Of a stretch of 56,773 nt of DNA, positions 9,172 to 53,462 are shown piece by piece (the first letter of the stretch is position 1; each line of letters begins with the position of its first letter). The notes below the pieces were generated by a model that saw only the letters and a list, made by a program, of their open reading frames with translations, did no database searches and had not been told where the DNA came from. Made by a program: the position numbers and the translations under genes. The stretch is from a virus. Lineage: Duplodnaviria; Caudoviricetes. The stretch lies in IMG/VR virus record IMGVR_UViG_3300025128_000043, positions 1 through 56,773 of that record; one strand, 5' to 3'.

Positions 9172-9512
9172 TCTTCCTCACCCTTAAACTTCTTAGACTG
9201 ACCAGAGGTTCCAGCATAAATGCCAAAGACTGCTGCCATAGCACCGACAACAACCGACACCAATCCTGCCTGCTCTAAATTAGGCTCATCAATAGTCATA
9301 AACCACATGACAACTGCGTACAGCAAATAAATGTAAACACCCACAAAGACCCTTGGAAAGATACGCCACGCATCAACAGTTCTAGCCAGATGTATCCATT
9401 TCTGATACGGGTTTATACCAATATTGTTAGGTGTTACTTCAAGCTCAAGATTAACTTTCTTTTTGATTACGTCATTTTCAAGAATGACCGTTGGCCCATC
9501 TTTTTCAATCAT
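9168..9512 (-). CDS. Two-TM holin-like membrane protein
   Basis: DAWRIFPR followed by two TM helices and a charged tail; next to spanins. Confidence 0.55.
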   Translation of the reverse strand: MIEKDGPTVILENDVIKKKVNLELEVTPNNIGINPYQKWIHLARTVDAWRIFPRVFVGVYIYLLYAVVMWFMTIDEPNLEQAGLVSVVVGAMAAVFGIYAGTSGQSKKFKGEEE

Positions 9513-9514
9513 AA

Positions 9515-9922
9515 TTATTCTTCCGTTGTTTCAGCCTCATCTTTTCGAGTCGGGTCATTATCCCTATAATATTTAATAATATTAAGGACTTGGCGTATAT
9601 ACCTTCTCACATCTGCAAAATTATTGGAAAGGTTTTCATAGCCCTGAGAACTCAATCCGTAGTAGGCCATAGCTGGCGCATCCCCTTCATCATAGTTTTC
9701 TATGTACTCGCGCATCACAGAAGGATTCAGGACTGTCCATTCCACCTCAGAGGGAACCACAGACTCTGGTAGGGGGGGATGATACATAGGTGCAGGCTCG
9801 GTAATTGTAACCACCTCAACGGGCCTGACTTCAGGAACAGCAGTGCTTCCCCCGAACAGACCGCCCATTGTCGAACATCCTTGCAGCCATAACAGGCTAA
9901 TCAGCAGAAACCACTTCATCAA
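9515..9922 (-). CDS. o-spanin-like lipoprotein
   Basis: Lipobox LQGC; Pro-rich segment; overlaps the i-spanin gene. Confidence 0.75.
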   Translation of the reverse strand: MMKWFLLISLLWLQGCSTMGGLFGGSTAVPEVRPVEVVTITEPAPMYHPPLPESVVPSEVEWTVLNPSVMREYIENYDEGDAPAMAYYGLSSQGYENLSNNFADVRRYIRQVLNIIKYYRDNDPTRKDEAETTEE

Positions 9923-33494: not shown

Positions 33495-33950
33495 TCAGCC
33501 TTTCCCAAAGGTTGTGCGCGTACTTTTCTCCGGTCTCAACAAGGGCATACGCGGATCATTCTCTCTCATGTAGTTGTTGTCCACGGACTCCATCTGTTTT
33601 TCTGCCAAATCTTGAAAATGTGCATTTCGGGCATCCATTTTTTCTTTTGGAGCCTTGCATAATAACAAGCCGCCGACCTCAAGATTCCCCTTAAACTGGG
33701 AATTGATGTCAGACTGGATATGAAGCTCTGGATGTTCTTCTGCCTTAACAGGTGTCCATCCATCTCTAAACTTCTGGGATACATTCGGGTTATCCGATTG
33801 ACCCATAACACTGGTTCTAACCCAGCGAAAAACCCAGCCATCCTGCGGATCAGGCGTTGGCAAAATCGAAGAAGGAACCCAAGAATCATTACTTTCTCGG
33901 ACATCTTCTGCACGACTATCGTGAGACCTTGGGGTGCGCTCATCAGCCAT
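33495..33950 (-). CDS. Conserved head-module protein
   Basis: FRWVR..GWTPVKAEEHPE..VGGLLLCK. Confidence 0.72.
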   Translation of the reverse strand: MADERTPRSHDSRAEDVRESNDSWVPSSILPTPDPQDGWVFRWVRTSVMGQSDNPNVSQKFRDGWTPVKAEEHPELHIQSDINSQFKGNLEVGGLLLCKAPKEKMDARNAHFQDLAEKQMESVDNNYMRENDPRMPLLRPEKSTRTTFGKG

Positions 33951-35001
33951 TTTTCATCTCCTTAACGAGTTGTTTGGCGTACTGCTCATTGGTTAACCCA
34001 AGTCGTTTAGCGAGAGCGACTTGAGTGGACGTTAACTGCACTTTGCGTGGTTTAGCTCCATTGTTCCTTGCGGAAGGAGCAACCACGGACGAGGGTTGGC
34101 TGTTTGTCGCAGGCGCGGCTTGTCCATTACCGCTAACATCTTCCGATGTATTGTCCTCCCAGCCATAATCATTAAATCGGCCCCTCATGCCTTGATCTAT
34201 GTAAGTAAAATACTGATCTGAATTGGGCGATAGCCCATTATCCTTTATGGCTTCTTCATGGAGAGCATAAGCATACGCTGTCATGCCCTTATGTTCTTCA
34301 TCACCAAACCAAGGATTTTTTTCTCCCCATTCCTTTGCTTTCGGTTCCGGCTCAGGAATTGTCGGGGCAACAGGCTGTTGATAGGTAGATTGTACCTGCC
34401 TTTGATAAGCGGCCTGTTGTTCCGGTGTTGGCTGGGGTGGCAGATTATTTTCATAACGCTGCGCTTCATTCAGTTCAGCCTGAGCGCGAATCATCTCTTC
34501 CTGAGAAGAAACAATCGCATCCGTATTTCCTTCCTCGTAAGCCTTTCTATATTCAGCTTTGGCCTTATCTGCTGCCAACTCCGCCTTTTCTTTAATCTGC
34601 GATACCAGCACGTTCTCGCCACGATTAATCAAAGACTCGTATTCTTTGTTCTTCGCGGAAAGCTGCTGATTCTGCTGATTAAGCGTTTGAGCGGCCTTAA
34701 CCGCTTCATCTGCAAGACGCTCTGCCTCTCTTCGTTTGTAAGTGGCTTTGTCCAAACGCTTTCTGACACTGGCACTGTATTGATCCAGTTCTTCATCGCC
34801 TGTTGGTTCTTCTGCCGCTTTCTTGGAAGGTGGCTTATCGTCTATAATTTCCAAATCCAGATCGGACTGCTCAGTAGCGGTTTTCTCCTGATCGGACTTC
34901 TTGGCAATTTGCGTCTTAACACCGAAGAACTTGTCCTCGGCTGACGTTGGTGCAGCGATAGACTCTGCCTGGTCTATACTGGTTTCTGTTGCTTCACTCA
35001 T
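33943..35001 (-). CDS. Scaffolding protein
   Basis: Acidic coiled coil; KNPWFG; C-terminal LTSTQVALAKRLGLTNEQYAKQ. Confidence 0.72.
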   Translation of the reverse strand: MSEATETSIDQAESIAAPTSAEDKFFGVKTQIAKKSDQEKTATEQSDLDLEIIDDKPPSKKAAEEPTGDEELDQYSASVRKRLDKATYKRREAERLADEAVKAAQTLNQQNQQLSAKNKEYESLINRGENVLVSQIKEKAELAADKAKAEYRKAYEEGNTDAIVSSQEEMIRAQAELNEAQRYENNLPPQPTPEQQAAYQRQVQSTYQQPVAPTIPEPEPKAKEWGEKNPWFGDEEHKGMTAYAYALHEEAIKDNGLSPNSDQYFTYIDQGMRGRFNDYGWEDNTSEDVSGNGQAAPATNSQPSSVVAPSARNNGAKPRKVQLTSTQVALAKRLGLTNEQYAKQLVKEMKNG

Positions 35002-49847: not shown

Positions 49848-50286
49848 ATTCTGGGCTAGGTGCTTTTGGTGGGGGGATGATGAACCCCATCTCTGCTGAT
49901 TCTCTTATCAGCGTTTCAATCAGGTCCGAGTAAGAGCTTTTGCTTTGATCGGCTGATCTTTGAATCGGACGATTCATCACACCAAATTTAGTGTCTACCT
50001 GTTCGCTTCCATAAGTCCTCGACAACATAATTTCATGGATTTCATCAGGGGTATTGCCTGTAAATTTGCCAAACTCCCTTGCCCATTTTCGATAATAACT
50101 TTCCTGGCTTCGAGTTCTCTCATCTCTTATCGGCTGAACGCAGAGTTCAACGCCCTTCTCTTTGAGCTTCGGCAACATATGCTGAATCGCTGGTATTTCA
50201 CCAGGAAACCGCCCAGCCAAGGCCATCAACAGTTTATTGAAGATGGCCTTATGGGTTTCTGGATTAAGCTCAAATCTTAGTCCCAA
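49846..50286 (-). CDS. NinB/Orf-like recombination protein
   Basis: RTRSQESYYRKW..DEIHE..RSADQSK..DLIE. Confidence 0.6.
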   Translation of the reverse strand: MGLRFELNPETHKAIFNKLLMALAGRFPGEIPAIQHMLPKLKEKGVELCVQPIRDERTRSQESYYRKWAREFGKFTGNTPDEIHEIMLSRTYGSEQVDTKFGVMNRPIQRSADQSKSSYSDLIETLIRESAEMGFIIPPPKAPSPE

Positions 50287-50609
50287 GGGTCTTTTCCAGA
50301 ATCAACTGGTGGCGGTGGTGGTGGTGGTGGAGCGTCATTAGTATCACTTGCCACCCCCATCACAGCATCTTGATTTTCCTTTGCAACATATGCCTCGCCA
50401 GTGAGATAGATATATCGCTGACCGTTGCTCTGAGCCGTTCTATCCCAACCTGCAATTTGAATTTTGATATCACCAACGCCAGCTTTCGCCTGGTTGACTA
50501 ACATCCTCAGAACATCACGAGTGATCTCAACGTGACCCTTTACGTCAGGCTGTTTCTCACTGGTTTTGTTGTGCGCCCAAAGCCCACCTTTAGTTTTTGG
50601 AAAATCCAT
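50277..50609 (-). CDS. Putative ssDNA-binding protein (DUF736-like)
   Basis: KTSEKQPDVKG..IAGW..YIYL; acidic/Pro tail ending PWD. Confidence 0.6.
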   Translation of the reverse strand: MDFPKTKGGLWAHNKTSEKQPDVKGHVEITRDVLRMLVNQAKAGVGDIKIQIAGWDRTAQSNGQRYIYLTGEAYVAKENQDAVMGVASDTNDAPPPPPPPPVDSGKDPWD

Positions 50610-50610
50610 G

Positions 50611-51360
50611 CTATTTCACCTCTTCTGTTATTGATAATTTATTTTTTAATTCACTAAAACCCACACGCAATTTCTCATACTGCTCGTTCCAATCTCTATC
50701 AAGCACATCAATAGTGGCTTTGTTTTTCCTATAGAAATCCTTGAGTTCATCGGGGTTTTCTGCAAACTCACCTGCCATCTGCAACATGAAACCAACTAAA
50801 CTCTCAGCACCTTCTACGCTGGTTATCTCAGCTACTTCACCCAGGGTATAATCCTCTATATCTTTTGTTTTATCTGCTGGCTCAGGCTGAGGCTCAGGCT
50901 CAGGTTTAGGCTTTGCTTTTGGCTTAGGCTTGGGCTTGGGTTCTGGTGCTTCTGCCTTGTCATTGATGGCATGGTTCACTTCATCAAAAGAAGCGTAGTT
51001 GCCCCCTGACAGACCGCAAGCACTTAACGCCCTGCCAATACTGCTGGTAAGACAGTTCTCAACCGCGCTGGTTTTATTAACTGGCCCACTCGCCCTGTAT
51101 TCCTCAGCAAAATCATTGGCAATAACTCGCCATGATCCATCGACAAATACGCTGATAGAGGTCTCTGCCAGAACTTTAGTATCATCTGCAACATGAATCG
51201 TGGAGATAATCTTTCCATCATCCCCGTAGGTTTCCCGAAAAATCTGGACTCGCGTATGCACTTCCGCGTAACGCTTACCCCTTATGTCAACCTTTTCTGA
51301 GTCGGGTAACTCAGACATCTTAGCAACGGCTTCTAAAAGCCTGTTTTGTTCCTCGCTCAC
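50611..51360 (-). CDS. Sak/Rad52-like single-strand annealing protein
   Basis: IRGKRYAEVHTRV..NKTSAVENCLTSSIGRAL; PK/PE linker. Confidence 0.65.
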   Translation of the reverse strand: MSEEQNRLLEAVAKMSELPDSEKVDIRGKRYAEVHTRVQIFRETYGDDGKIISTIHVADDTKVLAETSISVFVDGSWRVIANDFAEEYRASGPVNKTSAVENCLTSSIGRALSACGLSGGNYASFDEVNHAINDKAEAPEPKPKPKPKAKPKPEPEPQPEPADKTKDIEDYTLGEVAEITSVEGAESLVGFMLQMAGEFAENPDELKDFYRKNKATIDVLDRDWNEQYEKLRVGFSELKNKLSITEEVK

Positions 51361-51372
51361 TGTACTTTCTCC

Positions 51373-51633
51373 TTACTGATTAAATTTTTGTTTAGCCGCC
51401 TTAATAATTATTTCTGCTAATTCTTTTACTGCTAGTTGGTCAAAGACCAAAAAGCTGATGTCAGTCACATGATGCTCATTCATGGTGATCTTTACACTCT
51501 CACCGAGGAGCTTCATGCCTAGATTCACGGTCTTAAATCTGGAATCAGCCCACAGACCAAGCATCTTACGTTCAATGACATCTTCTGCGTGAAATTCAAT
51601 GCTGATCGACTTTTCTAAATCAAATGTTGCCAT
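51373..51633 (-). CDS. Hypothetical protein
   Basis: Start reassigned to MATFD. Confidence 0.55.
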   Translation of the reverse strand: MATFDLEKSISIEFHAEDVIERKMLGLWADSRFKTVNLGMKLLGESVKITMNEHHVTDISFLVFDQLAVKELAEIIIKAAKQKFNQ

Positions 51634-52021
51634 TTCTGATTGCCTCATATTGATCGCACCATCTCGCAACACCGCAATAATCGCCCTCGCATCGCACGTT
51701 CTTTCCTTTGCGTTCTTCAATGCAATGCTTGTTGTCCAGCTTGTTATCATCAAAGTATCGCTGTGCTTCTTCTTCTGATGGAAAAACACGCATAGCTCGC
51801 TTATTAACAATCTTCTTCACAGCCCATGTGGACGGCCTTGCCCATCGCTCAAGGTCAGAACAAAGTGGCAGATCACCGCCAGTTAATCTCTCATACTCAG
51901 CATCCTGGTGGAGCTTTACTCTGCCAGCGATGTATTCATCTTGTTTAGCATCATCCCAAAGCTGAATCGGTATGATAGTTATTGGGGATTTTGGATAAGC
52001 GTTAGTCTCTTTCATCTTCAT
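51620..52021 (-). CDS. C-terminal part of a PD-(D/E)XK/Cas4-like exonuclease
   Basis: YP..PI..I.LW, LPLC..ERW, RC..YC.V..WC; same frame as 52184-52702. Confidence 0.65.
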   Translation of the reverse strand: MKMKETNAYPKSPITIIPIQLWDDAKQDEYIAGRVKLHQDAEYERLTGGDLPLCSDLERWARPSTWAVKKIVNKRAMRVFPSEEEAQRYFDDNKLDNKHCIEERKGKNVRCEGDYCGVARWCDQYEAIRNGNI

Positions 52022-52187
52022 CGACCTGAGCTATAGTGTAGTAATAAAGCCTTCTTACCTCATCATCACTGAACTGTAAGATAACTCTCTCTCTGACATA
52101 ATCGAATAAATTACGGGTACTTAACGTCTGAATATGCTCGATTTCATACTCAGTAAGCACATCACGCATATGGTCAATGTTCATCAT
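52002..52187 (-). CDS. 61-aa ORF inserted between the nuclease halves
   Basis: AGGGGG RBS and ATGA overlap; MMNIDHMRDVL... Confidence 0.6.
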   Translation of the reverse strand: MMNIDHMRDVLTEYEIEHIQTLSTRNLFDYVRERVILQFSDDEVRRLYYYTIAQVDEDERD

Positions 52188-52702
52188 TTCCCCCTTTGCT
52201 TTTCTAGTTCCGACAATTTCCAATCACGCAGAACTGCAACGATCTGGCATTTGCCTACGGGCATCTTCTTTACATGACGCACAAGCCAGGCATAAGCATT
52301 AAGCTGGTTAACCCATTCTTGTTTGCCGTAGATCACGCTCCAAACGGAAGTGCATTTGTAATCTGAAACAGTGACAGAACCATCTGCTTCGGTTTCCTGC
52401 AAATCAATCGCACCAGAAAGCTCCCAACCCTCATGGTCAACGAATAATCGTTCCTCGCTGATATGCTCTTTATCAGATACAGCATCCTCAAACATATTGT
52501 GAACAGCCGTTCCAAGAACACTCCAGACCTTTTCTGAGGCATCTTCAGTCATTTCAGCATCATGCTCGGCTCTGAGTATCCTAATTCTAGGAGAATCAAT
52601 CAGTTGCGTGATACTTCGATTACTCGAACCGCGACTGTAATTATCTTTGGTTAACGCATCAACAACAGGCTTTGGCAGGTTGTGTTTATTCGTGAGTTGC
52701 AA
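52184..52702 (-). CDS. N-terminal part of a PD-(D/E)XK/Cas4-like exonuclease
   Basis: LGTAVH, E.RL, SGAIDL, DYK, QLNAY. Confidence 0.8.
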   Translation of the reverse strand: MQLTNKHNLPKPVVDALTKDNYSRGSSNRSITQLIDSPRIRILRAEHDAEMTEDASEKVWSVLGTAVHNMFEDAVSDKEHISEERLFVDHEGWELSGAIDLQETEADGSVTVSDYKCTSVWSVIYGKQEWVNQLNAYAWLVRHVKKMPVGKCQIVAVLRDWKLSELEKQRGK

Positions 52703-52952
52703 GACAAAAGACCCTAATGGACTGAGGTGATTCTGTGGTCACAGAAAATTTAGACCCTGCATACTTCTTTTGGTATCGTTGAACCTTCATTCTCAAAGCG
52801 TTCAAGGTCTTGTCCAAATTACCATTGTCTACATCCAGCTTAAAAGATTGCCCTGGTTTCATCGCATCGAGAGGTAAATTTGGTAGCGGCACCCTATCAA
52901 CCACCCTATTGGGTAGTGGAACATTGTCTTCAATAATAATCGGACTCATCAT
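52686..52952 (-). CDS. Small putative DNA-binding protein
   Basis: IEDNVPLP..P...MKPGQSF..IRVF. Confidence 0.6.
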   Translation of the reverse strand: MMSPIIIEDNVPLPNRVVDRVPLPNLPLDAMKPGQSFKLDVDNGNLDKTLNALRMKVQRYQKKYAGSKFSVTTESPQSIRVFCLATHE

Positions 52953-53024
52953 TTTTCCTTTACGTTTGATTTGTGATGTTGTTGTATGTTTAGATGTAGC
53001 GAATTGTCGCGTAAAAGAGTAACC

Positions 53025-53462
53025 ATGTCAAATGATGAAATCGTACATAGTTTTACCGTACTGGGGGAGCCAGCCTCGAAAAGTAATAGCAGACGACTCG
53101 TTACCATTAAAAACCGACCTGCTTTCATCAAATCAAAAAAAGCACTTAACTATGCAAAAGATTTTTCTAGGCAATGTCCTGTGCTTGATCCGCTTCTGGA
53201 AGGTTATCTTGAGGTTGAAATGACAGTCTATTACGCAACAAGAAGGCCCGACCTAGATGAATCAGTCATACTCGACTGTATGCAAGACAAAATTTATAAG
53301 AATGATCGCCAGGTAAAGTCCAAGATTGTTCGCTGGGGTTTAAGTAAGTCTAATCCAAGAGCAGAGATCGAAGTTCGCCCATTAAAAAAGCCCCCTCACG
53401 AAGAGGGGGCCAGAAGTCAGCGAGGAACCGACCCTGCCAAAAATTCTAAAGGGAAAATTTAG
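53025..53462 (+). CDS. RusA-like Holliday junction resolvase
   Basis: GEPASKSNS..RRPDLD..ILDCMQ..YKNDRQV..NPRAEI. Confidence 0.85.
   Translation: MSNDEIVHSFTVLGEPASKSNSRRLVTIKNRPAFIKSKKALNYAKDFSRQCPVLDPLLEGYLEVEMTVYYATRRPDLDESVILDCMQDKIYKNDRQVKSKIVRWGLSKSNPRAEIEVRPLKKPPHEEGARSQRGTDPAKNSKGKI

Follow-up and report, generated by a model that had tools for sequence, protein, structure and literature searches.

Organization of the locus

The present analysis concerned a nuclease gene that was found to be divided into two parts in the virus record IMGVR_UViG_3300025128_000043 (Duplodnaviria; Caudoviricetes), the whole stretch of which (56,773 bases) is referred to here as the window. The record was complete or near-complete (CheckV 98%), it originated from marine metagenomes, and parts of it were present in the DNA runs of several studies. 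Three packed genes, each with its own start codon and joined to the next by a stop/start overlap, were found on the minus strand: the N half of the nuclease (52702..52184), a small inserted gene designated I (52187..52002) and the C half (52021..51620). The N half contained a TTG start codon and coded for 172 amino acids terminating in LRDWKLSELEKQRGK, followed by the stop codon TGA at 52186-52184. Gene I ran from ATG to TAA in a frame different from that of N and C, and coded for an acidic protein of 61 amino acids (isoelectric point, pI, 4.5). The C half began with MKMKETNAYPKSP and coded for 133 amino acids, or for 131 amino acids when read from the ATG at 52015.

The junction of N and I (52184..52200, minus strand) contained the Shine-Dalgarno (SD)-like sequence AAAGGGGG directly ahead of ATGATG, and the stop codon of N was overlapped by the ATG of I in the form ATGA. 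The same layout of SD-like sequence and ATGA was found to recur with CAAGGAGGAAGATGATG in the relatives L016, L017 and L002. The final five or so codons of N (KQRGK, or RQGGR in relatives) result from reading, in the frame of N, the SD and start region that belong to the inserted gene. The overlap of I and C (52002..52021, minus strand) comprised 20 nucleotides (nt), in which the tail of I (DEDERD followed by the stop) and the head of C (MKMKET) were encoded in two frames. The conserved start of C was the ATG at 52015, with the stop codon of I falling 11 nt beyond it, and L017 did not contain the upstream ATG that is the counterpart of 52021. In L002 and L011, which belong to one IMG/VR contig, a different insert ended in a stop codon that formed ATGA with the start ATG of the C half, preceded by AAAGGAAG.

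The initial annotation had described an exonuclease gene whose two parts lie in the same frame, separated by 162 nt with further in-frame stops, and a 61-amino-acid open reading frame (ORF) in another frame that overlaps both parts. This layout was confirmed on the minus strand, with the gap at 52183..52022 and with four in-frame stops after that of N when the frame was translated.

Similarity of the two halves to one nuclease family

The N half was found to match Pfam PF12705 PDDEXK_1 (8.3e-08, 32.9 bits against a cut-off of 22) and the PHROG family phrog_2139 "exonuclease" (2.4e-22), the best stretch of the latter ending at profile position 202, and the C half matched the same phrog_2139 (2.3e-18) over profile positions 200-323 of 330. 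Far beyond chance, these profile matches point to N and C as halves of one family. In the sequence search of the PDB, no match was found for the N half, and two matches only, with E-values of 0.11 and 0.45, were found for the C half.

The halves matched 14 and 18 phage records, respectively, and the matches were found to fall inside single genes. In Synechococcus phage MinM2, the tblastn matches of N and C were 9 nt apart within one annotated coding sequence (33860-34873). The statement in the initial annotation that homologs are single chains was thus borne out, both in the phage records and in the homolog clusters of 277-301 amino acids described below, including the syntenic ones. Since the homologs are single chains, the idea that such enzymes are routinely encoded by two genes fails, and the two halves were found to hit the same family and not unrelated ones.

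Alignment to homologs, which had been proposed for fixing the junction, placed the cut in a 10-residue linker that separates the conserved RDW and YP motifs (alignment A2). The tail of N (KLSELEKQ and onwards) and the head of C (ending in KMKET) both aligned to columns of this linker, and therefore the extra residues at the cut are few, with about 5 added to N and 2-4 to C.

The residues D100, D114, K116, Q133 and Y137 of the N half were found to be invariant in 56 aligned sequences, and we take them to be the catalytic motifs D ... (D/E)xK and QxxxY of the family. All the PD-(D/E)XK or RecB-type catalytic motifs (GAID, DYK and QLNAY) were contained in the N half. The C half contained four Cys residues, C54, C111, C116 and C122 in the 133-amino-acid numbering, corresponding to C217, C272, C277 and C283 of the unsplit ortholog L006. 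They were invariant or at least 90% conserved, and all of them lay within the C half, with none at the N terminus.

Predicted fold and likeness to Cas4

The structural evidence was obtained from a model of L006 and not from the window's own halves. This model (predicted local distance difference test score, pLDDT, 93.8; predicted template modelling score, pTM, 0.86) was found to match Cas4 SSO0001 (4ic1_B) with a Z-score of 15.8 and a root mean square deviation of 3.4 over 192 residues, spanning model residues 7..288 and thus the whole length, followed by EXO5, AdnA and Cas4-Cas1 complexes with Z-scores of 11.6-12.8. For the cluster-less nucleases lambda exonuclease, RecE and MGME1, the alignment to the model reached residues 206-224.

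By alignment, the cut was placed near L006 residue 166-168, which assigns the core strand 177-182 and the helix 187-209 to the C half. Homology to the model thus gives the C half this last core strand and helix, a small sub-domain and the four conserved Cys. As modelled, the N half is a protein that holds the catalytic residues but an incomplete fold. Since the cut lies inside the fold, the two halves would have to assemble non-covalently.

The predicted enzyme shares with the Cas4-family nucleases (Cas4 SSO0001, human EXO5 and AddB/AdnAB) the fold of the L006 model, the RecB-type motifs and a C-terminal Cys triplet. By analogy with Cas4, AddB and EXO5, the four-Cys module is predicted to bind an iron-sulfur cluster. 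The enzyme differs from that family in being encoded by two genes, in the position of the fourth Cys, which is in the C half (C54) whereas that of Cas4 is near the N terminus, and in an extra sub-domain that separates the first Cys from the last three. Judged from the neighbours examined (RusA, primase/helicase and NinB/Orf), its context also differs, being a phage recombination module and not CRISPR.

Distribution and selection of the split

The homologs of the N half were grouped into 457 clusters, and the best 120 of these were used for the statistics. Among them, 16 clusters of 170-172 amino acids were found, which were exactly those at 81-98% identity, along with 102 clusters of 277-301 amino acids, all at 59-68% identity. 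Two odd clusters contained proteins of 229 and 183 amino acids, the latter apparently truncated; the 229-amino-acid homolog (P0058, 63% identity) departed from the family directly after YPQAP and resembled a frameshifted or disrupted unsplit gene. The stand-alone clusters of the C half numbered 30, all at 68-95% identity, and 20 of the 30 were of 131 amino acids, i.e. called from the ATG equivalent to 52015. A search of the family without a word index gave 3,363 representative clusters, and among the best 150 of these, 122 were of 270-360 amino acids and six were shorter than 200. Two of these six, representatives of 175 amino acids (P0185 and P0216, 45-48% identity), ended in or just past the RDW/YP linker, and they may have arisen by independent fission in other lineages or be calls that were truncated.

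The unsplit homologs L006 and L007 (61% identity) were found in the same neighbourhood of primase/helicase, RusA, nuclease and NinB genes, and are therefore positional orthologs of the split gene. Among the split relatives, the synonymous divergence (dS) ranged from 0.18 up to saturation. The ratio of nonsynonymous to synonymous substitution (dN/dS) was 0.014-0.095 for the N half (20 pairs, not counting one at saturation), 0.059-0.146 for the C half (6 pairs) and 0.153-0.165 for gene I (3 pairs, overlaps excluded). Because of these low values, N, C and I were taken as genuine maintained genes, and the split, as judged from the sequence comparisons, is old, fixed in one clade and under purifying selection.

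The same values bear on the reading in which the nuclease was inactivated by the split and the halves are decaying pseudogene pieces. A cut within the core fold could abolish activity, and in the contig L003 the N half occurs with no C half nearby; but full length was kept in the 16 N-half and 30 C-half clusters, dN/dS remained below 0.15 for the halves despite synonymous divergence up to saturation, and all the catalytic residues and the four Cys were retained. Decay is accordingly considered very unlikely.

The inserted gene and the gap

Gene I was found to have six homologs at 75-97% identity, five of 61 and one of 55 amino acids. Its best structural model contained four short helices (pLDDT 77.8, the other four models being about 60). 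No Pfam family above the cut-off and no PHROG family was found for the protein, no match at E <= 0.001 was obtained by fold search in PDB or BFVD, and in ESM Atlas the best score was 0.77, below the trusted level. In IMG/VR, 31 pattern hits were obtained and 0 were confirmed. Against 50,697 phage records, no match was found either with the DNA of 51400-52950 or with the gene I protein. Residues 7-56 of gene I aligned with one cyclodipeptide synthase (7qax and its sister entries) over residues 67-116 of the latter, with E-values from 7.5e-4 to 1.1e-3, and this match of 50 residues was set aside as probably a helical coincidence.

The search for repeats around the insert found 8-17-nt imperfect repeats only, with no terminal inverted or direct repeats bounding it, and no second copy of the insert was found in the phage genome. 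Both results speak against a transposon-like element. An intein or split intein was rejected, as the gap contained five in-frame stops (that of N included), no Hint or intein Pfam family was found on N, I or C, and the tails at the cut were of about 5 and 2-4 residues only.

One explanation offered by the initial annotation was a ribosomal bypass of the T4 gene 60 type, with take-off at the AAA codon before TGA and landing at an AAA codon 177 nt further on, so that one chain is made. The features behind this proposal were present, namely N and C in one frame, the stop directly after AAA, the in-frame AAA 177 nt downstream and the SD-like sequence. However, in that frame AAA was found at 45, 177, 198, 243, 480 and 576 nt, so that the codon match was no better than chance. 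In L016 and L017 the N half ended in AGA with no in-frame AGA at the head of C, and in L018 and L004 the halves were out of frame. For the T4 gene 60 bypass, the gap is described as 50 nt long and its take-off and landing codons as matched, and conserved RNA structures are reported together with signals in the nascent peptide (Manning & Atkins, 10.1101/2022.08.31.505936). The locus resembles T4 genes 39/60 in that a phage gene of DNA metabolism is interrupted by inserted DNA at a recurrent site, that a stop directly follows the final sense codon, and that an SD-like sequence is present at the gap. It differs from gene 60 in that the gap, of 162-168 nt as against 50 nt, is a conserved coding gene (dN/dS about 0.16) and not a non-coding stretch, and in that neither the take-off and landing codons nor the frame relation is conserved in relatives. 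The RNA fold of the insert was not significant (z = -1.42), 18 of the 200 shuffles folding equally well, which counted against a bypass signal and a ribozyme alike. A bypass with matched codons is thus unsupported and is regarded as extremely improbable.

The initial annotation had also offered a small intron-like element, which in its explicit form is a self-splicing intron (group I, group II or a new ribozyme) removed from the mRNA with one frame restored. In-frame halves broken by a stop-containing and ORF-bearing insert are indeed seen in many phage introns. Typical group I introns are longer than the insert, which is of 162 nt. In the search of Rfam over 51400-52900 with E-values up to 10, six matches of 11-18 bits were obtained as against gathering thresholds of 38-90, and no intron family was among them; these sub-threshold matches (miRNA, snoRNA, DapZ and an astrovirus frameshift element) were dismissed as chance. 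The gap was conserved and coding with its own ribosome-binding site, its boundaries were ordinary SD, start and stop overlaps, and in relatives its place was found to be taken by unrelated coding sequences, which ranged from 223 to over 530 nt and changed the frame. An intron therefore found no support and is held to be scarcely credible.

In another reading, N, I and C form one chain with a 61-residue insertion, arising either from a pair of frameshift errors in sequencing or assembly or from a pair of programmed frameshifts. A run of five G residues was found beside the boundary of N and I, where one added G would fuse the two in frame. Against this, the geometry of three ORFs was repeated in L016 and L017 (70-90% identical), which were independently assembled and came from other samples, with differing boundary nucleotides, contigs of other runs showed no insertions or deletions, no conserved slippery heptamer was found, and unsplit homologs contained no insertion at this place. 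The probability left to such a chain is practically nil.

Variable cargo between the halves

Relatives with the cut at the identical point were found to differ in the content of the gap. In the window, L016 and L017 it contained I alone, whereas in the contig of L002 and L011 it contained an acidic ORF of about 78 amino acids, belonging to a family designated B and unrelated to I. L018, in which the N half was 98% identical to that of the window, contained B (99 amino acids) followed by an I-like ORF, and L004 contained B (98 amino acids) and a basic ORF of 103 amino acids. L019 contained the end of B, a 90-amino-acid ORF and two tandem I-like ORFs, followed by the C half. The out-of-frame gaps of L018 and L004 were of 442 and about 536 nt, respectively. 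The cargo ORFs fell into at least four unrelated families. No Pfam or PHROG family was found in the six ORFs searched in relatives (two of B, the 103- and 90-amino-acid ORFs and two I-like ORFs), and no homing endonuclease family (HNH, GIY-YIG) was found in these six or in I.

Family B was also found in L021 and L022 with no nuclease half within 2.5 kb, and this occurrence away from the nuclease halves marks it as a small gene that moves freely. The copies of gene I found so far were all in this slot, between the halves in the window and L016-L018 and upstream of the C half in L019.

Exchange was also seen among near-identical sequences. Contigs of two other runs, with flanks at least 99% alike, were found to differ from the window by about 279-286 nt exactly at 52182-52188. 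Record 6 of X4 contained about 279 extra letters between 52182 and 52188, and X6 showed loose ends at 52182/52188 which, on the gene strand, were the first and last residues of B. The arrangement of X4 and X6 corresponds to the B-plus-I layout of L018.

The following observations were made on the inserts themselves. In L018 (2260-2560), the B cassette was flanked on both sides by the 7-nt sequence AATGATG, a stop/start overlap. In L019 (439-970), the tandem I-like ORFs were of 87 and 97 amino acids, the second opening with the C-half head (MTMKET and onwards), to which an I-like body was fused. At each module end, GATGACGATGAAAGAGACT was repeated as a motif. This pattern of sequence repeats suggests a duplication through unequal recombination at the junction motif. 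The basic 103-amino-acid ORF of L004 (3748-4059, pI 10.6) showed a by-eye likeness of pattern to the 88-amino-acid ORF of the window (52686-52952), and BLASTP between the two gave no match at E <= 1.

Neighbouring genes and transcription features

The three genes were found within a tightly packed leftward operon, which contained in order the 88-amino-acid ORF (52952..52686, minus strand) as its first gene, N, I, C, an 86-amino-acid ORF, a phrog_11717 protein, a 110-amino-acid ORF and a NinB/Orf-like gene. Past a divergent intergenic region, RusA-like and primase/helicase genes were present on the opposite strand. The phrog_11717 protein (249 amino acids, 50611-51360, minus strand) contained a long (K/E)P repeat linker including PEPKPKPKPKAKPKPEPEPQPEP, and the adjacent 110-amino-acid ORF (50277-50609, minus strand) contained a C-terminal run of eight Pro. 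These two occupy the places expected for a single-strand annealing protein and a single-stranded DNA-binding protein, but no named family was matched by either of them.

In the divergent intergenic region upstream of the N-I-C operon, a sigma-70-like site TTGACA-17-GACAAT was found at 53003..53031 (minus strand), which is a weak lead. The scan for promoters and terminators gave counts at or below the shuffle expectation (2 promoter-like sites as against 4.4 expected), and the same scan found neither a promoter-like nor a terminator-like site between N and C.

Discussion

The two-subunit nuclease, the remaining explanation offered by the initial annotation, was supported by the single-chain homologs, by the one family that accounts for both halves and by a split under purifying selection. 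It is very probable that the locus is a split gene ("genes in pieces") coding for two subunits, with a cargo slot between them, and not an intron or a ribosome bypass. The ancestor would have been a one-chain exonuclease of the Cas4-family PD-(D/E)XK type, of about 290 amino acids, in the recombination/replication module of the phage. Foreign coding DNA would have been inserted in the ancestral RDW-YP linker, followed by gene fission. The three present genes would be co-transcribed and translationally coupled, and the half-proteins are predicted to assemble, the N half giving the catalytic residues and the C half the last beta-strand, the helix and the four-Cys module. In phage recombination, the rebuilt nuclease may act together with the NinB/Orf-like and annealing-type proteins encoded next to it. 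After the split, the junction would have come to resemble any other intergenic region, open to the coming and going of small accessory genes.

Several observations weigh against this split-gene explanation. The SD ahead of the first ATG of the C half was weak in the window (cAGGtcg) compared with relatives, and the family did not contain the N-terminal Cys ligand of Cas4, AddB and EXO5. The non-covalent assembly of N and C is predicted from the model of an unsplit relative. Only two RNA contigs were found, both in run X19, an oligo-dT library; they were of 151 nt each and mapped to 52567-52717 and 52752-52902, outside the junction. In the IMG/VR contig L003 (786-4301), an N half at 91% identity was followed by an ORF of family B and then by genes matching about 9200-9840 of the window, and no C half was found within the next 3 kb. 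L003 may derive from a rearranged genome or from a chimeric assembly; if the contig is real, an adjacent C half is not required for an N half to persist. Further on in L003, small-terminase-like and VRR-NUC-like ORFs were observed, named by reading their translations.

The closest known system, and one that the split nuclease may resemble in principle by analogy, is nrdA of Aeromonas phage Aeh1. In that phage, the insertion of mobE is reported to split nrdA into nrdA-a and nrdA-b, whose two polypeptides assemble with no RNA or protein splicing and depend on the tails that the insertion created (Crona et al. 2011, PMC3045599). The likeness lies in the short new tails at the cut ends, which in the phage nuclease are of about 5 residues on N and 2-4 on C. 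The differences from nrdA are that no endonuclease family was found in the cargo ORFs searched, that the cargo differs among close relatives, and that the split enzyme is a Cas4-like nuclease cut in the core fold, for which assembly is predicted from the model. Among the titles listed in a literature search, none concerned a split phage Cas4-like nuclease, which is weak evidence of its being unpublished.

A stronger form of the split-gene explanation is that the split has been put to use, with swappable small genes placed between the halves so that their translation is coupled to an essential recombination nuclease, and with I as a dedicated third partner. In that form I could help the halves to assemble, act on the nuclease as its gatekeeper or inhibitor, or mimic DNA. 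We consider it unlikely; if true, the locus would code for a three-part regulatable Cas4-like nuclease and provide a natural case of split-enzyme control in phage.

For the two-subunit nuclease with a cargo slot, which is the preferred explanation, the locus would represent a clean, clade-fixed gene fission in phages, one in which neither a homing endonuclease nor an intron, an intein or a signal for recoding is present. The cut parts the catalytic residues from the Cys module, probably of the iron-sulfur type, and may thus provide a natural system for studying that module in trans as well as a ready-made split site for the engineering of Cas4-like nucleases. In the annotation of these marine phages, two genes named "hypothetical" or "partial nuclease" would have to be read as one enzyme. 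The locus would further indicate that a split junction can turn into a hot spot for the exchange of small orphan genes, even among near-identical strains.

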